Below are positions 8,639 to 22,133 of a DNA stretch of 27,946 nt, one piece after another. Under the pieces are notes generated by a model that was not told the origin of the DNA, ran no database searches, and saw nothing but the letters and a program-made list of their open reading frames with translations. The position numbers and the translations under genes are program-made. The first letter of the stretch is position 1; every line of letters starts with the position of its first letter. The stretch lies in UHGV virus genome UHGV-0178950. One strand, 5' to 3'. The DNA is from a virus.

Positions 8639-11600
8639 ATGCGATCAATCCAATTTAAACGCACACAAACGGCTGGTAAAAAACCAACGCCGGAACAATT
8701 ATCACAGGGTGAATTGGCTATTAACCTTGCTGATCACGTTCTGTATACCAAAGATAAAAATAACGCAGTAGTTCAAATCTCTGTTTCTCCAGAAAAACAT
8801 GCTGAACTTAACACGAAAGTAGACCAGAATAAAACCAACACTGACCGTGTTATTGCTTCCAACAAACAAGAGGCCGCTAATAATCTGGCTAGTGCTAAAG
8901 CTGAACTGAATCAGACTATTACCACGAAAGATACAGCGACCAATAAGCGCATTGATGCTACCAACACCACTGTTAGTAACTTAACCCAGACAGTTACGGC
9001 AAATAAAACCGATGCCGACACTAAGATCAATAACCTTACGGGGACCGTATCTGCGAATAAGACCGCAATTGAAAGAACCGTTGCCGCAAACAAATCTGAT
9101 GCAGATAGCAAACATGCAGCTTTAACGAAAACGGTCACTGACAATAACACCGCGATTAACAACAAGGTTAATACCACTAACACCAACGTTAGCAACTTAA
9201 CTAAAACTGTTACTGCAAATAAAACCGATGCAGATAACAAAATTTCTAGCTTAACTAGCACGGTTGCAGCTAACAAGACAGCGATCGAAAAGACTGTTTC
9301 CGACAATAAGAAAGACGCGGATACTAAGATTACCAATCTTACTGGCACTGTTAATAGCAACCATACCGCAATTAACAACAAGGTAGACCAGAATAAATCT
9401 TCTACTGATGCCGCAATTGCAGCCGCTAACAAACGAATTGATGGTATTGAAGGTAGCAATGATGCTCTTTACATCAAGAAGAATACCAATACTAAGCATG
9501 GTGGGTATCTGTTAAGCAAGACAGCTAACTATCTGGAAGACCAGACATCACGAGATCTTAACTACTTTGGTGCTTTCCGTACCAATGGTCAAGATGGACT
9601 CATGGATCTAACTCTTAATGTTCCTCATTCTGCCGGTAAAGCGCACGGTCGCGGATTTACTTTCCGTTATGCGTCTGGTGGATCTCGTGTTGAAACCTAT
9701 GGTTTTGATAGAGAAGGACAGAAGAACTTTAGCTATAAGATGTATCACGAAGGTGATAAGCCGACTCCTGGCGAGATTGGCGCATACACCAAAGCCGAAG
9801 TTGATAAGATGTTTGTTAAAAACGTCGTTATGTCTGTTCCCAATTCTAGCGAAAACGTATCTGCATATTTCAAATTGGCAACCGCAACAATTCCACAAAA
9901 CGGGCGTAGTGTGTTTTTCCGTATTCATGGTGGTAATGGTTACAACGTTACGGCATATGATCAGGTTGACGTAGTAGAAATTCTTCTGCGTAGTGGTAAC
10001 GATAGACCTAAAGGTCTTAACGTAATTGCATACCGTAGAAATACAAACAAAGATTTTGAGGTATTTGCTGTCAATACTTCCGGTGATAACTATGATATCT
10101 ACGTGAAATATCAGCGTTATACCGATAACGTTATTGTCGAATATGGGAAATCTGTTTATGTAAGTTTGACGGTTTATGATACGCCGGAAGCCACGTTAAT
10201 TAAACCTTCCGTTGGTGTTATCGGTGGTCGCAACGTAACTCTTTTTAATACTGAAAATAAACGTGGTGTGTTAAGTTTTGATGATAACACACAAAACAGC
10301 TATGACATTGTTCATCTAAGTAATGATAAAGGTACTGGACGGAAATATATTCGTAAATTCCGTAGCAACTATAACGAAATGGTTTGGCATGAAACCGTTC
10401 AGGGTGCTGTATATCGTCTTGCTACTGGTGCTACAGATTCTACAGAAGTTATTAGAATTGATTCTAATAGTGCAATACCGGGTAATTATAAAGGATATGT
10501 AATTACTGGTAAAATGGAATTGCACGGTAGTGGTAATGCGATGACTTTACATCGACAGACTGGTCAAGCTGCATATATGGCGTGGTGGGATCGTCGTGAT
10601 GGTAAAAACCAACGTAGTGGTTATATCGGTCATGCGGATGGTACTAGTGATGGTTTTGTGTGGCGTAATGATGTTGGTGCTAACTCATTTGATTTGGAAG
10701 GTAGTGGACAAGTAAATTTGACTACAGGAAAAACAAAAATTGTATATACCAATGGTCAATATTATTCCGCTAACGCTGATGCATTCCGTATGATTTACGG
10801 TAAGTATGGTGCATTCTGGCGAAATGATGGTGGTAAAGTTTATCTGTTGTCTACTGCCGAAAATGATAGATTTGGTGGTTGGAATACATATCGACCTTTT
10901 ATCTACGATCTTACTTCCGGTAACGTTCAATTAGGTGGTGATGGAAACGAAGATGTATTAACTCTAGAACGCGCAAGCAAGGCCGCTCGATTCTCTGGCA
11001 ACGCTTACATCAAAGGTCAACATTTAACATTTGATGCTGGTGCTGGACAATCCCGCGATTACTTCCGGTTTAACCATTGGGGCGATAGTAATAACGCTCG
11101 CGATAACATCCTACAGATTGAAGACAGTCAGGGTGCACACTTTACCACTGAACGCGCTATGGGTACTGGCAATATCACAGCACGTTTTAAAGGCTTTGTG
11201 CGTGTAGAATCCGGTGAGATTGCCTTTGATGCTAATCGTGGATCTGCGTCTCAATTTACCTTACATACATGGGGTAACGAGCAACGCAAACAGGTTTTTG
11301 AATGTAAGGATGCTACTAGTTATCATTGGTATACCGAACGTACAAACGGTGGAACTGGTCCTATCCTGTTCTCTGTTGCTGGTACATTAAAAACTGCGAG
11401 CAATATACAGGTTGGCGGTGCTGATATTGAGTTTCGTCGCAGTGGTAATAAGCATTTATGGTTTAGAGATCCGAACGGTTTAGAATTAGGTTTGATGTAC
11501 TGCGATGATGCTGGTGTTATCCGCTTCCGTGGTCAGAAACAAGGTCAAACTTGGAAACTTGCTGATAAAATGATTCATCTTGAGGCGGGGACTGTCGGCG

Positions 11601-12241
11601 GGTCTGATAAAGGTTTGATTCGTGGTAATGTTGCTGGTGGTAGCTGGGCTAGCTGGCGTGATCGTTCTGCCGGAATCCTCGTAGACTGTCCGAACTCAAC
11701 CGATTCCGCTCATAACATCTGGAAAGCGACTCATTGGGGAAAATATCATATTGCGGCAATGGGTGTGCATGTTCCTAGTGGTACTATTACCAATGCTTTA
11801 GCTCGCCTAAACGTTCACGACGCCAACTTTGACTTTAACGCTGCGGGTGATTTTAGCGCAGGTCGTAACGGTAGCTTTAACGATGTTTACATTCGCTCTG
11901 ACTCCCGTTTGAAGATTAACAAGGAAGAATTACAGGACGGTGCATTAGAGAAAGTAAACTCACTGAAAGTCTACACCTACGATAAAGTTAAATCTCTTTC
12001 CGATGACACGGTGATTAAACGCGAAGTAGGTATTATTGCTCAGGATCTGGAAAAAGTATTGCCGGAAGCAGTAGGTATTCAATCCACAGAAGATCCAGAA
12101 CAACCGGAAGCAATCAAGACTATTTCTAACTCTGCTGTTAATGCCTTGATTATTAAAGCTATGCAGGAAATGGACGCCAAATATAAAACACAGATCGAAG
12201 CATTACAGAAAGAAATTGCCGAACTGAAAGCAACTAAATAA
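8639..12241 (+). CDS. Long tail fibre with C-terminal intramolecular chaperone (peptidase S74-like) domain
   Basis: 1200 aa; N-terminal KKPTPEQLSQGELAIN box; Thr/Asn/Lys-rich tandem repeats; C-terminal SDSRLKINKEELQ...VYTYDK...GIIAQDLEKVLPEAV resembles the self-cleaving chaperone of L-shaped fibres and endosialidases. Confidence 0.8.
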   Translation: MRSIQFKRTQTAGKKPTPEQLSQGELAINLADHVLYTKDKNNAVVQISVSPEKHAELNTKVDQNKTNTDRVIASNKQEAANNLASAKAELNQTITTKDTATNKRIDATNTTVSNLTQTVTANKTDADTKINNLTGTVSANKTAIERTVAANKSDADSKHAALTKTVTDNNTAINNKVNTTNTNVSNLTKTVTANKTDADNKISSLTSTVAANKTAIEKTVSDNKKDADTKITNLTGTVNSNHTAINNKVDQNKSSTDAAIAAANKRIDGIEGSNDALYIKKNTNTKHGGYLLSKTANYLEDQTSRDLNYFGAFRTNGQDGLMDLTLNVPHSAGKAHGRGFTFRYASGGSRVETYGFDREGQKNFSYKMYHEGDKPTPGEIGAYTKAEVDKMFVKNVVMSVPNSSENVSAYFKLATATIPQNGRSVFFRIHGGNGYNVTAYDQVDVVEILLRSGNDRPKGLNVIAYRRNTNKDFEVFAVNTSGDNYDIYVKYQRYTDNVIVEYGKSVYVSLTVYDTPEATLIKPSVGVIGGRNVTLFNTENKRGVLSFDDNTQNSYDIVHLSNDKGTGRKYIRKFRSNYNEMVWHETVQGAVYRLATGATDSTEVIRIDSNSAIPGNYKGYVITGKMELHGSGNAMTLHRQTGQAAYMAWWDRRDGKNQRSGYIGHADGTSDGFVWRNDVGANSFDLEGSGQVNLTTGKTKIVYTNGQYYSANADAFRMIYGKYGAFWRNDGGKVYLLSTAENDRFGGWNTYRPFIYDLTSGNVQLGGDGNEDVLTLERASKAARFSGNAYIKGQHLTFDAGAGQSRDYFRFNHWGDSNNARDNILQIEDSQGAHFTTERAMGTGNITARFKGFVRVESGEIAFDANRGSASQFTLHTWGNEQRKQVFECKDATSYHWYTERTNGGTGPILFSVAGTLKTASNIQVGGADIEFRRSGNKHLWFRDPNGLELGLMYCDDAGVIRFRGQKQGQTWKLADKMIHLEAGTVGGSDKGLIRGNVAGGSWASWRDRSAGILVDCPNSTDSAHNIWKATHWGKYHIAAMGVHVPSGTITNALARLNVHDANFDFNAAGDFSAGRNGSFNDVYIRSDSRLKINKEELQDGALEKVNSLKVYTYDKVKSLSDDTVIKREVGIIAQDLEKVLPEAVGIQSTEDPEQPEAIKTISNSAVNALIIKAMQEMDAKYKTQIEALQKEIAELKATK
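8978..9409 (+). repeat. Two tandem copies of a 216-nt (72-aa) coding repeat inside the fibre gene
   Basis: NLTQTVTANKTDADTKINNLTGTVSANKTAIERTV... repeated as NLTKTVTANKTDADNKISSLTSTVAANKTAIEKTV..., period 216 nt (8978 to 9194). Confidence 0.7.
11896..12241 (+). other. Predicted autoproteolytic chaperone domain of the fibre; cleavage predicted at the Ser-Asp of SDSRLK
   Basis: SDxRLK-type motif at 11896-11913 followed by about 110 residues with a coiled-coil tail. Confidence 0.55.
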
Positions 12242-12248
12242 TAAAAGT

Positions 12249-12267
12249 CGGGGGACTAGTTCCCCCG
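12249..12267 (+). terminator. Hairpin after the fibre gene
   Basis: CGGGGGA-ctagt-TCCCCCG; weak T-tract, so terminator status uncertain. Confidence 0.4.
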
Positions 12268-12298
12268 TTATAAACAATTTTAATTAAGGGGTAATTCT

Positions 12299-12775
12299 AT
12301 GTCTCAGCAATTTAAAGATATTTTTACTGGTGGTCTGGTAAGTATGTTCTATCACGCCGATACCACTAACACCGATCTTGCACATGAAAGCTATGAAGAA
12401 ATTAAAGAGTGTGCTGGTTTTCCTGAAACTGGTATCGAGCGCGGCACTGTAGAAGTTAAATCCTTCTCTTCTCAGTACAACCGTAAGCTGGTAGGTAAAC
12501 TGAATGTTCCTGATCTGACTCTGACCGTTAACTACATTCCAGGTGATGCTACTCACGCTAAACTGGATAAGGCTGCCGAAGATGGTACGCGTATTCAGAT
12601 TAAGATTGAATATTATGTTGATGCTGGTAAGCAGACTGGTATTCGCACCGCTTTCAACGGCTTTATCTCTAAAGCTGCTATGCAGGGTGGCGACGAAGAA
12701 GTTGTAACCAAAGAATATACTTTTGCGGTTGATGGTGCTCCGATCAAACAGGAAGTGTTTACCACTGGCGGATGA
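12299..12775 (+). CDS. Abundant virion protein, candidate major tail tube protein, 158 aa
   Basis: Strong optimal codon bias as in the capsid domain; AAGGGGT Shine-Dalgarno; sits upstream of the G/T chaperones and tape measure; paralogous to the N-terminal half of the 7727 gene; a decoration protein is an alternative. Confidence 0.55.
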   Translation: MSQQFKDIFTGGLVSMFYHADTTNTDLAHESYEEIKECAGFPETGIERGTVEVKSFSSQYNRKLVGKLNVPDLTLTVNYIPGDATHAKLDKAAEDGTRIQIKIEYYVDAGKQTGIRTAFNGFISKAAMQGGDEEVVTKEYTFAVDGAPIKQEVFTTGG

Positions 12776-12901
12776 ACTAACGAAGAACTTCCTTTACCAG
12801 AATCGGAACCACTGCCGGAACATGAAGCGGTGGTGATTCCAGAAGTAGAAGAAGTTACGGCGAAAGCCACAGCAAAACGAGGCCGCAAGGCTAAGAATTA
12901 A
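12776..12901 (+). other. In-frame 41-codon extension after the major tail TGA stop; candidate readthrough product
   Basis: Open in frame 0 after TGA at 12773-12775; encodes TNEELPLPESEPLPEHEAVVIPEVEEVTAKATAKRGRKAKN; shares an identical 20-mer (gttacggcgaaagccacagc) with 6911-6930. Confidence 0.3.
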
Positions 12902-12906
12902 TTTTA

Positions 12907-12935
12907 AGCCCTGCCTTAATGGTGGGGCTTTTTTA
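12907..12935 (+). terminator. Rho-independent terminator after the major tail gene, same stem as 6964-6991
   Basis: AGCCCTGCC-ttaat-GGTGGGGCT followed by TTTTTT. Confidence 0.7.
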
Positions 12936-12949
12936 TTGGAGTAATCAAA

Positions 12950-13456
12950 ATGGCAAATGTCGTTAAAGTTCCTGGCTGGATCGGGTCATCTGCTGTATCG
13001 GTGACGGGTAAGCGATGGATGAAAGAAGCATTAACAGCTTTAAAAGTTCCGGCTCCGCGTAATATGTCGGCAATGGCTGGTCGTGGTATGGATACGGTTG
13101 TAGCTACTGCATCGTGGTCTACTTCATTGGGTAATAACTGGGGTGTAACTGCTTCAAACTATCCTGTTTCCGGTATGCAAAGCAAAGGATCTATGGAGAA
13201 CCCCGAAAACGTGGGCGTAGGGCGTCTGGTTGGCGTTATCGTTGGTCAATTCAATGGCGGTACTCCTACTATGGCTGTATATCTCCAGAACGGTAGAGCG
13301 GGGAATATAACCGTTAATTTGGGTGGTGCTGCTGTCACTGTTCCTTATAACAGTATGCAAAGTGGTTTTCATTACTATTGGTTAAGCAATCCTCCGGCTG
13401 CTTTCCTAACAAATATTAAGAAGACTGGCACTAAGCAGACTTTGAAAATCTCTTAA
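12950..13456 (+). CDS. Hypothetical tail-associated protein, 168 aa, Gly/Ser/Thr-rich
   Basis: ORF with GGAG Shine-Dalgarno; ordinary codon usage; lies between the tube candidate and the chaperones. Confidence 0.5.
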   Translation: MANVVKVPGWIGSSAVSVTGKRWMKEALTALKVPAPRNMSAMAGRGMDTVVATASWSTSLGNNWGVTASNYPVSGMQSKGSMENPENVGVGRLVGVIVGQFNGGTPTMAVYLQNGRAGNITVNLGGAAVTVPYNSMQSGFHYYWLSNPPAAFLTNIKKTGTKQTLKIS

Positions 13457-21300: not shown

Positions 21301-22133
21301 ATGGATCGGGTATTTGTCCTTTTGGTATCGAAGGTAACAAGGTTTATCTCGATAATGCGATGATTCGTAATGCTGCAATTGGTACAGCCCAGATTAATGA
21401 TGCGGCAATTACTACCGCTAAGATCGGCAATGCTGCAATTAACAGCGCGAAGATTCAGGACGGGGCAATCACTAACGCCAAGATCGTAAACGGTGCTATT
21501 GATAATGCCAAAATTGGTAACTATATCCAGTCTTCCAACTGGAACGGATCTACCGGATGGCATATCAACAAGAACGGGTCCGCTACGTTCATGAACGCTA
21601 CCGTTAAAGGTAATATCACGGCTGATTCTGGTACTCTGAACAACGTCACGATTAACTCTAGCTGTGTTATTAAGGGTATGCTTGAAGCTACTCAGGTTAA
21701 GGGTGATTTCGTTAAGGTGATTGGTCGTAAGTTCCCGCACCGTGATGTTAACGTTGATAATGGTTATGCTGGCTATCCACAGGGTACGGTCACTGTTCGC
21801 GTTGAAGATGATCACAAGTTCGATCGTCAAATCGTTATTCCGGCAATTAGTTTTGGTGGATTGCGAGCGCGTGAAGGGTCGAACAATAATACCTATTACG
21901 ACACCTGTCGCCTGATTGTTCGTAAGAATGGGTCAGAGTTGTATAATAGGGCGTATGGCGGTAATACTGGTCTTTACTCAGGTGTTATTGATATGCCAGC
22001 GGGTAAGGGTGCTGTGACCTTGACCTTTGAAGTGCAATCAAGCGCAATCAACAACTGGACGCCTAGCACATGGATCAGTGATTTAACAGTAATGGTAACT
22101 AAAAAAGCCACTACTGGTATTACTGTTTCTTAA
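18360..22133 (+). CDS. Tail tip / host-specificity protein, J-like, with an I-like Gly/Ala-rich hydrophobic N-terminus
   Basis: 1257 aa; N-terminal about 100 aa resemble the C-terminal half of lambda gpI; fibronectin III-like segments; C-terminal 9-10 aa repeats (AIGTAQINDAAITTAKIGNAAINSAKIQDGAITNAKIVNGAIDNAKIGN). Confidence 0.8.
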   Translation: MGFEILVGAVIAGASAGMAAAATFSVMTAVAIGMAAGAMTLIASTVGAPKTPKVQSPDNAVTLGTSNDPKAVIPVVFGTTRTGTNCVYKAVSKQENNKLVQIFSVAEGEIDHYKALFIDNKNVLVGKNMTIRDGILDKGNIKEEYRKVLEVEFRTGKNPNTALSLAKRHLGSDWTDAFKGNGIATMCIVLRRDDKSLAAGVDILQPNSQVAVDVCGLKIRNLETNAIEASTNGVDQIFHYLTNEKYGLSVPIENINVDSFLKVRKQVRQMDLHSNGACDPNASFKENLTNLMQTFGGVMFESFGRITLKLDAPDIVKHTFNEDNIMMGKVSLKTGGTNGYFNTINAMYQEPSIDYSEQMLRYPADAENDATVRADGRIIAKDVEYRFVKSKDQIDKLASIERNKSRITQVISFMTTDAFTAEVWDVISVTYDELKLNNSLWRITAIDRSIDSGIAGMMTITATEYNSQVYTDLNYAATPDNRPSLPDSMTVQKPTNFRIKATGETIYGKNVTLTWDAPEDFNRYGFQIDYRVSGSPNWIKLGQTSQQIFSVNALAKDRSYDYRVCAFGIIARSDWVELVNQNPTVTYELPTPVIRIKNQGSTPGTFEGNDLIIEWENQQQLDVMINGETNKFSDLFEAYIIKVTNKAGKSIQYRTRDPESWTYTLDMNQFNGLSRQLTVEVSAKGYNNSESAPARLVAINPQHKPMKGFSARGGFNTAFVSWADDVEHDYAGSIIQYATDNTFSDARAVSTNSVSHTSFDIADGDYYIRGAHYDIFGMDDAVWSEPYFMQMKSTISWDDQDKEALEDLIGLQDRLDETIADAIKQAGANADAKIDAMHKQITTETGKTVQASADTLKSLIASGDKASSTKIDQVKAELKGDITKEVSASATSLKQAIATSEAASASKIDQVRVEMDGKIAGVNQEADVKIDALKGTINSKYNLAVNADGRVAGIHMSATNDPAQPTRIIFNADKIAVAPQDGSGICPFGIEGNKVYLDNAMIRNAAIGTAQINDAAITTAKIGNAAINSAKIQDGAITNAKIVNGAIDNAKIGNYIQSSNWNGSTGWHINKNGSATFMNATVKGNITADSGTLNNVTINSSCVIKGMLEATQVKGDFVKVIGRKFPHRDVNVDNGYAGYPQGTVTVRVEDDHKFDRQIVIPAISFGGLRAREGSNNNTYYDTCRLIVRKNGSELYNRAYGGNTGLYSGVIDMPAGKGAVTLTFEVQSSAINNWTPSTWISDLTVMVTKKATTGITVS

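Follow-up and report, generated by a model that had tools for sequence, protein, structure and literature searches.

We analysed the virus genome UHGV-0178950, a stretch of 27,946 nucleotides (nt), hereafter the window, which represents most of a siphovirus-type Escherichia coli prophage of ~35 kilobases (kb). Our subject is the 3' ends of two of its genes, those for the major capsid protein and the major tail tube protein, each of which terminates in TGA and is followed, in the same reading frame (frame 0), by a further open reading frame (ORF), here called the capsid or the tail extension, and then by a terminator. We refer to stop codon, extension and terminator together as the cassette. 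E. coli strain PI7 (NZ_CP074033, prophage at about 752-788 kb) carries a 95.6% identical copy of the prophage, inserted in hicB, and 58 of 5426 complete E. coli genomes contain related DNA. The Prokaryotic Genome Annotation Pipeline (PGAP) leaves both extension regions blank in all E. coli genomes checked. The features of the two gene ends are as follows:

4817-6829, plus strand: fusion gene of a prohead protease and the major capsid protein, with TGA (6827-6829) as its stop; assigned from its translation, the Pfam domains Peptidase_S78 and Phage_capsid, and the PHROG class major head protein
6827-6832, plus strand: candidate leaky stop TGA-ACT, capsid copy; identical to UGAACU, the hexamer at which the Qβ coat gene is read through (PMC13517186)
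6830-6955, plus strand: capsid extension ORF of 42 codons, TSVEPSEPSPDLGEENLIPKPEEDSQTVTAKATAKKQRKTKE; recognised from its frame 0 translation, its homologues and its codon-usage score
6911-6930, plus strand: capsid copy of a shared 20-mer, GTTACGGCGAAAGCCACAGC, which encodes VTAKATA and holds a GGC-GAAA-GCC mini-hairpin
6956-6961, plus strand: tandem in-frame stops TAA TAA closing the capsid extension, read from the sequence
6964-6991, plus strand: intrinsic terminator on the capsid side, AGCCCTGCC-TAAC-GGTGGGGCT and a T run, from a terminator scan; its stem variants in relatives stay paired
12299-12775, plus strand: major tail tube protein gene, similar to the lambda gpV N-domain, ending in TGA (12773-12775); assigned from weak Pfam matches to lambda-like tail tubes, the PHROG class major tail protein and an AlphaFold model
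12773-12778, plus strand: candidate leaky stop TGA-ACT, tail copy; invariant in the window, in all 24 related loci and in all tail-type matches of the 19-mer scan described below
12776-12898, plus strand: tail tube extension ORF of 41 codons, TNEELPLPESEPLPEHEAVVIPEVEEVTAKATAKRGRKAKN; open in frame 0 after the TGA up to a TAA, with homologues, and predicted to be disordered
12854-12873, plus strand: tail copy of the shared 20-mer, an exact repeat
12899-12907, plus strand: stop TAA at the end of the tail extension and a second in-frame TAA one codon on (TAA TTT TAA), read from the sequence
12906-12936, plus strand: intrinsic terminator on the tail side, AAGCCCTGCC-TTAAT-GGTGGGGCTT and a T run, from the terminator scan

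The AlphaFold model of the tail tube protein matches the tail tubes of lambda, NF5 and YDC107. An earlier note on the window had described the tail extension as an in-frame paralogue of the capsid one, with an identical 20-mer and terminator, and had given GA-TGA-ACTA as the context of both stops; each of its statements about the tail extension's sequence holds at the coordinates listed here, and the stop context is likewise common to both genes in the window. The 20-mer occurs exactly twice (at 6911 and 12854; shuffled sequences lead one to expect 0) and sits within an 80-nt direct repeat of 73% identity that extends into the two terminators, which are nearly identical.

Stop codon usage and gene-end geometry

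Among the 22 late genes of the plus strand, 20 end in TAA, five of them with a second in-frame TAA adjoining, and TGA is found only at the ends of the capsid and tube genes. The same two genes are followed by the two largest downstream gaps of the 22 (191 and 174 nt), and their terminators are the two best-scoring terminator-like sites of the scan. An open run of at least 41 codons is expected from base composition with P about 0.07 per site. The argument of the earlier note that two open frames of 41-42 codons are improbable by chance therefore loses force as far as length is concerned: length alone is weak evidence, and the within-genome control of TGA usage and gap size is much stronger. 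The geometry of the gene ends points in the same direction. It is the end of the extension, rather than the TGA, that has double stops at 2-5 nt from the terminator stem, and the same spacing is seen at the TAA of relatives that have no extension.

Similar hairpins with G5/C5 stems (CGGGGGCGCAATGCCCCC and CGGGGGACTAGTTCCCCCG) precede both genes, at 4779-4797 and 12249-12267, in each case after the TAA TAA of the previous gene. On the plus strand they have no T run, and between each hairpin and the start codon stands TTAATTAA-GG. Paralogous elements, possibly processing or stabilising sites, thus bracket the capsid and tube genes at their 5' and 3' ends.

The cassette in related prophages

In all 24 loci that we fetched with tube proteins 80-96% identical to that of the window, TGA-ACT is followed by an extension in frame (36, 39 or 41 codons) and then by the terminator seen in the window. 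Another 38 loci, whose tube proteins are 36-64% identical, came from a profile-based scan, and all of them end in TAA with a terminator or the next gene directly behind. Four E. coli loci of intermediate similarity (69-74%) also have TAA followed immediately by a terminator, the stop being doubled to TAA TAA in two. Salmonella relatives of the tube gene end in TAA and have short fused tails such as …SGLRK. The tail extension is represented by 15 unique homologues of 36, 39 or 41 codons, all in frame, and a 40-codon variant (L153) keeps the ORF joined to a different terminator. Scanning the species-representative genomes with the tube-protein alignment returned no relative, and a protein-level search of deposited phages returned only distant matches, the nearest tube protein being that of Escherichia phage DCP80 (43%), with Vibrio phages at ~30%. 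DCP80 stops at TAA and has no extension.

The DCP80 record (L001, PQ671644) has two further peculiarities. At 3565-3660, between the capsid TAA and the terminator, it holds a small out-of-frame ORF, MERAISPMSLGAEALDAAPVKKSKSASG, with a basic end; and it is labelled Straboviridae and is 141 kb long, yet contains a siphovirus-type head and tail module, so that it may be a chimeric assembly or a misclassification.

For the capsid gene, 49 loci (some of them fetched twice) have TGA with an extension, 23 distant ones have TAA without extension, and three have TGA without a recognisable extension in frame 0. TGA-A is present in every extension-bearing copy, both in the 49 loci and in 23 distinct contexts from the independent 19-mer scan. 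The capsid extension is known from 20 unique homologous sequences of 28, 42, 43, 44 or 45 codons, together with a 33-codon variant, all in frame 0. A second type of capsid protein, 37% identical to that of the window, also carries the extension: the sequence before its stop is unrelated, and the stop is again TGA-A with the extension in frame 0. Taken over all relatives, the stop context proposed in the earlier note narrows from GA-TGA-ACTA to TGA-A(C/A)T, the upstream GA not being conserved.

The capsid and tail copies are independent modules, because many prophages have the cassette on the capsid gene alone; the tube gene of some of these ends in TAA TAA.

Another arrangement is found in L055 (IMGVR_UViG_2823530352_000002, whose tube protein matches an Edwardsiella tarda entry), around 2212-2340 and 8960-9011. 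Behind its capsid gene, a homologue of the extension in shorter form, VIPTGREEVSVKSGRKPKTDN, occupies the -1 frame and overlaps the capsid TGA, with a possible A-AAG slip site (GGTAAAG) just upstream, and the tube protein has a short fused tail with no stop (…NVIPEAVAAKEK). This locus represents either a decayed cassette or expression by frameshift or fusion in a relative.

The reading frame is kept through insertions and deletions

All 35 unique extension sequences of the first set are open in frame 0, and each of them contains stops in frames +1 and +2. The extensions vary in length (36, 39, 40 or 41 codons for the tail copy; 28, 33, 42, 43, 44 or 45 for the capsid copy), with all differences being multiples of three nucleotides. 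At least eight insertion or deletion events can be distinguished (42, 27, 3, 6, 3, 6, 15 and 3 nt), and every one is a multiple of three, an outcome to which frame-blind events would lead with a probability of roughly (1/3)^8, the 6-nt event being less informative as it lies in a stretch with a 6-nt period.

We also performed a scan that is independent of gene calls, using the 19-mer GTTAMGGCGAAAGCCACAG against IMG/VR and a metagenome collection. When walked upstream in frame, every phage-type match, comprising 39 distinct IMG/VR contexts and 18 metagenome matches, reaches the TGA-A of a capsid or a tube gene, and the remainder are chance matches in unrelated organisms. The same scan of species-representative genomes gave only chance matches in unrelated bacteria.

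Other accounts of the junction were considered and rejected. The predicted protein P0003 (L027; European Nucleotide Archive (ENA) contig k141_243218, 41-637) is 198 residues long and joins the tube protein to the extension through a W in place of the stop; it was rejected as a fusion, as the DNA reads TGA, and is evidently a gene-caller artefact arising from the choice of genetic code 4 on a short contig. A frameshift or a ribosomal hop is unneeded, since only frame 0 is open. Independent initiation within the extension was set aside after reading the sequences by eye, as there is no in-frame ATG and no start with a convincing Shine-Dalgarno sequence; the ATG that overlaps the TGA opens a frame of 2 codons only.

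Coding signal and properties of the extension peptide

A log-odds score for codon usage, trained on 22 genes of the window, gives +26.9 bits for the capsid extension and +18.2 bits for the tail extension in frame 0. Windows of 41 codons from real genes score 22.6 +/- 9.0, and the off-frames of the extensions score -28 to -52, like the off-frames of genes.

The composition and layout of the peptide are kept across the homologues: an acidic spacer rich in Glu and Pro, the motif VT(or K)AKAT(A/V)K, and a Lys/Arg cluster in one of the forms KKQRKTKE, KRGRKAKN, KRSRKAKD, KKERKTKAK, KKVGRPPKAK and KRGRKPKE. The basic tip peptide is VTAKATAKRGRKAKN, and the readthrough junctions predicted with Trp at the stop are …FTTGG-W-TNEELPLPESEPLPEHEAVVIPEVEEVTAK and …LHISAE-W-TSVEPSEPSPDLGEENLIPK. 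Such a pattern fits a disordered tail under loose constraint, and by itself is no proof of translation. Readthrough extensions in general have been reported to be disordered and loosely constrained (PMC7026636).

For structural modelling with AlphaFold we used a database entry that carries the tube protein, W and the extension. The tube core is confidently modelled and aligns to the tube-forming N-domain of lambda gpV. In the extension, the predicted local distance difference test score (pLDDT) is <70 throughout and <50 over most of its length, with no secondary structure; no Ig-like β-sandwich fold was recovered in these 41 residues, nor any Pfam domain. A comparison of the basic tip with the AT-hook, a GRP core with basic residues on both sides (Pfam AT_hook, cut-off 17.4), gave scores of 14.2-14.7 bits for the KKVGRPPKAK and KKAGRPPKAKE alleles only, and no match for the alleles of the window.

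A predicted stem-loop at a fixed distance from the stop

Folding of single sequences and of alignments predicts a stem-loop within each extension:

6840-6913, plus strand: predicted forked stem-loop, capsid copy; closing helix of 6840-6848 (AACCTTCTG) with 6905-6913 (CAGACGGTT), starting 11 nt past the TGA
12786-12856, plus strand: predicted stem-loop, tail copy; closing helix of 12786-12791 (AACTTC) with 12851-12856 (GAAGTT), starting 11 nt past the TGA

In every variant type the helix begins 11 nt after the UGA. The partner of its 5' arm (AAC or AAT…) is a run of bases whose last three (GTT or ATT) open the 20-mer. Five sequence versions keep 6-9 pairs in the same helix register:

Version 1: AACC.UCUG / CAGA.GGUU
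Version 2: AAUUGCCGG / CCGGUAGUU
Version 3: AAUCGCCGG / CCGGUGAUU
Version 4: AACUUC / GAAGUU
Version 5: AACAACC / GGUUGUU

Compensatory changes are found between versions 4 and 5 (tail copy, AACTTC/GAAGTT to AACAAC/GTTGTT, two pairs) and between versions 2 and 3, and one recombinant breaks two helix pairs. In the capsid copy, variable sites are fewer in the stems of the fold predicted for the window (13 of 68 paired positions vs 26 of 66 unpaired, p = 0.013); the predicted stems of the tail copy show no such depletion. Part of the nucleotide conservation, including that of the start of the 20-mer, fits a conserved RNA stem-loop that the earlier note had not seen. Searching positions 6700-13000 with Rfam revealed no selenocysteine insertion sequence (SECIS), small RNA or leader family (best match 21 bits vs a cut-off of 50), and no complementary target for the 20-mer exists in the window at up to 3 mismatches.

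A second, smaller hairpin is present in capsid alleles with KKVGRPPKAK, where the region coding for the basic tip forms five base pairs (GGTGG/CCACC; GGCGG/CCGCC in one allele), as in a comparison of L013 and L003 (…AAAAAGGTGGGACGTCCACCG… vs …AAAAAGGCGGGTCGTCCGCCG…). The GGCGG/CCGCC pair is compensatory and hints at a further constraint at the RNA level just upstream of the double stops.

Probable UGA readthrough and its alternatives

The frame, the stop codon, its context, the codon usage and the RNA helix are conserved. We regard the pattern as real and non-random, and programmed UGA readthrough is its best-supported interpretation: it probably yields minor, C-terminally extended capsid and tube subunits. 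The proposal of the earlier note that these are paralogous extensions translated by UGA readthrough gains from the choice of stop, the frame, the length variants, the codon usage and the hexamer shared with Qβ, all of which are properties of the sequence, and from these we infer translation, its level and the insertion of Trp. The cassette would then be a readthrough unit that, within a family of E. coli prophages, was duplicated and swapped between capsid and tube genes. Most ribosomes would stop at the UGA and release normal capsid and tube subunits. A few per cent would decode it by host Trp-tRNA(Trp), favoured by the Qβ-type UGA-ACU context and possibly by the stem-loop 11 nt downstream, and would go on to add 41-42 residues before halting at the in-frame double stops adjoining the terminator.

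Readthrough of UGA in E. coli reflects competition between Trp-tRNA(Trp) and release factor 2 (RF2) (PMC10570021). The only transfer RNA (tRNA) call made by ARAGORN in the window is a tRNA-Glu of 91 nt at 7482-7572 on the minus strand, inside a plus-strand ORF, and it is probably a false positive because the complete, 95.6% identical PI7 prophage gives zero tRNA calls. Host tRNA(Trp) is likely to be the decoder of the UGA, because the related prophage has no tRNA and the single call in the window is on the wrong strand within an ORF.

The added peptide would be disordered, with its acidic Glu/Pro spacer, VTAKATAK motif and Lys/Arg-rich tip. On the tube, it would leave the core where lambda gpV has an outward-facing Ig-like domain, and by this structural match it should project from the tube exterior, because the core corresponds to the gpV N-domain, which is followed in gpV by the exterior domain. 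C-terminal additions to coat proteins of the HK97 fold, such as T7 10B, are surface-exposed, and by analogy the capsid extension may also lie on the virion surface. A minority of head and tail subunits would then show the same flexible, positively tipped arm, whose role would most likely be weak adhesion to polyanionic surfaces (lipopolysaccharide (LPS), capsule or DNA), or else assembly.

Several results weigh against this interpretation. The ratio of non-synonymous to synonymous substitution rates (dN/dS; Nei-Gojobori, summed over pairs) is 0.73 for the capsid and 0.43 for the tail extension, and variable sites are spread across all three codon positions with no third-position excess, which is weak evidence of the selection on the peptide suggested in the earlier note. 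Both regions fold better than shuffled controls (z = -6.2 for the capsid and -3.2 for the tail copy), meaning that some of the conservation acts on RNA. Searching the extension peptides in 5.8 billion predicted proteins found no case with a sense codon in place of the TGA, and a near-identity search of 50,697 deposited phage genomes found no close relative, hence no cultured one in that collection. Finally, the relatives are close and exchange modules; independent observations are far fewer than loci, because TGA, extension and terminator can travel whole as one cassette.

Some of these same results would be expected if each region were a structured RNA of the 3' untranslated region (3'UTR), either an mRNA stabiliser or the source of a small RNA with the 20-mer as seed beside the terminator, the open frame being incidental and untranslated. 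A conserved single-stranded stretch with a terminator resembles the layout of Hfq-type small RNAs. To the folding far beyond that of shuffles and the weak dN/dS can be added the helices that persist through compensatory changes, the variation that avoids stems in the capsid copy, and the invariance of the 20-mer in its nucleotides. However, an untranslated element leaves unexplained why lengths vary in multiples of three, why it always directly adjoins a stop codon, and why that stop is constantly TGA-A when other late genes and extension-less relatives use TAA; gene-like codon usage in frame 0 and in-frame double stops at its close are equally unaccounted for. With no Rfam match, no target for the 20-mer in the window, and tail-copy variation that is not depleted in stems, we consider a purely RNA-level function unlikely.

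A different possibility retains readthrough and dispenses with the peptide: a ribosome at the extension stop would mask the 5' arm of the terminator, allowing transcription to run into the downstream genes. This would still account for the kept frame and the TGA, and it agrees with the distance of only 2-5 nt between extension stop and terminator stem and with weak constraint on the peptide. Stops near terminators are, however, normal also in relatives without an extension, and readthrough of a few per cent would shift termination only marginally. Nor would such regulation explain why the spacer and tip composition and VTAKATAK are kept in both copies and in all length variants, or why the ORF persists after the terminator swap in L153, and we judge it very improbable.

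We give marginally less credence still to the extensions being relics, that is, once-fused C-terminal tails cut off by a nonsense mutation and now drifting untranslated. Distant tube proteins do have short fused tails with basic ends (…SGLRK in Salmonella, …NVIPEAVAAKEK in Edwardsiella), and dN/dS of the capsid copy is not far under 1. A drifting relic is nevertheless difficult to reconcile with a stop that is never TAA or TAG and never lost, with distinct sequences that all lack frameshifts and internal stops, with codon usage that has not decayed, and with a cassette found on three different gene ends, including the 37%-identical capsid type, always in frame. Least credible of all, and close to negligible, is that the UGA encodes selenocysteine with the downstream hairpin as a bacterial SECIS: the stem-loop does follow the UGA after a spacer of about 10-11 nt, to which the minimal E. 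coli SECIS spacing is close, but a common SelB-binding loop is absent because the variant types (forked, 11-bp GAAA hairpin, two tail types) have entirely different hairpin sequences and apical loops, Rfam gives no match, and there is no chemical reason for selenocysteine at the junction with a disordered tail.

Returning to programmed readthrough, a stronger version of it can be formulated, in which the cassette is a portable recoding module consisting of UGA-ACU, a 10-nt spacer, a readthrough-stimulating stem-loop, a short ORF, double stops and a terminator, able to recombine onto any structural gene end and to keep tagged subunits there at a constant, low proportion relative to untagged ones. 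We regard this version as tentative and rather doubtful. If true, bacteria would gain their first described signal for structure-stimulated stop-codon readthrough, selenocysteine insertion aside, and tailed double-stranded DNA (dsDNA) phages their first programmed readthrough in structural genes.

Neighbouring genes and repeats

The region between the capsid and tube genes contains a 277-residue protein (7727-8560), upstream of the tail fibre gene, that matches the major tail protein PHROG 158 (E = 6.6e-9), which suggests a second tube-like paralogue in the head-to-tail region. The fibre gene itself (8639-12241) encodes 1200 residues with a T4 gp34-type trimerisation domain and an S74 intramolecular chaperone, and a T4 gp38-like adhesin is encoded at 12950-13456. 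The tail tube gene thereby lies between the fibre and adhesin genes, which themselves stand between head genes and tail chaperone genes; for fibre genes in a siphovirus-type module this position seems unusual. Direct repeats within genes are found at 5375-5626, as Glu-rich repeats in the scaffold-like region between the protease and capsid domains; at 9044-9384, in the fibre gene, as five copies of a 38-nt unit; and at 21357-21476, in the tail tip gene, as tandem units of 30 nt.

Significance and comparison with known systems

Minor long forms of capsid and tail proteins are known in tailed phages through frameshifting, and natural stop-codon readthrough is a textbook trait of the RNA phage Qβ. 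In a full-text literature search, covering one library, we found no report of a tailed dsDNA phage whose structural genes undergo stop-codon readthrough. If our interpretation is correct, the UGA-ACU signal of Qβ operates on two genes of such a phage and has escaped annotation pipelines, a warning that 'intergenic' DNA behind TGA-ending structural genes may be coding. The cassette also offers an approachable E. coli system for questions of interest to researchers in recoding and in phage structure: can bacterial ribosomes be made to read through more often by an RNA structure downstream of the stop, and what use has a virion for disordered arms with positive tips on its head and tail? In phage engineering it could serve as a natural site for low-copy display.

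In mechanism the nearest known system is Qβ A1, whereas in biology the Listeria phages discussed last come closest. Qβ is a small RNA phage in which one gene is extended, by a folded domain of ~200 residues. What the window shares with the Qβ A1 system is the host species, a major capsid gene ending in UGA-ACU, and the absence of any need for a phage suppressor tRNA; it differs in being a tailed dsDNA prophage of ~35 kb, in the predicted peptide, which is disordered and only 41-42 residues long, in having two paralogous copies, on capsid and tube, and in the conserved stem-loop after the stop. In E. coli, 3-5% of ribosomes pass the leaky UGAACU stop of the Qβ coat gene, giving a minor capsid subunit that is extended at its C-terminus (PMC13517186).

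We know of no bacterial readthrough stimulator of the stem-loop type found in alphaviruses and coltiviruses. The class of signals to which these viruses belong (Firth et al. 2011) resembles the present element in having UGA, a short spacer and an extended or forked stem-loop, and differs in acting on eukaryotic ribosomes with UGA-CGG or UGA-CUA, whereas ours is a predicted element in an E. coli host. Stem-loops for readthrough in eukaryotic viruses have been listed at +2 and +12 from the stop, several viruses having one about 10 nt past the UGA (PMC13517186).

Residues 157-246 of lambda gpV form an exterior Ig-like domain (PMC8718954), and the tail extension starts where this domain begins; the gpV domain, however, is folded and fused constitutively to every subunit. 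A fixed minority of subunits with an extra C-terminal module from the same gene is found in T3/T7 10B, Lactobacillus phage A2 and SPP1 gp17.1* (PMC5009743; PMC8718954). The extra module of gp17.1* is dispensable and has been proposed to mediate transient adhesion to the cell surface (PMC8718954). These systems rely on frameshifting and add mostly folded Ig-like or FN3 domains, in contrast to the short acidic and basic peptide, predicted to be disordered, described here.

The Listeria phages PSA, A118 and A500 produce long forms of their major capsid protein (Cps) and major tail protein (Tsh) through recoding at the gene's 3' end (PMC5009743). We found no other described case of a single tailed phage with C-terminal extensions of both proteins by recoding, as would be true here. 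Their long forms arise by +1 or -1 frameshifting at proline codons or slippery sites. The extensions of the window do not enter a +1 or -1 frame at a slippery site but continue in frame 0 with the other frames closed, and, as a further difference from the Listeria phages, they are paralogous to each other.

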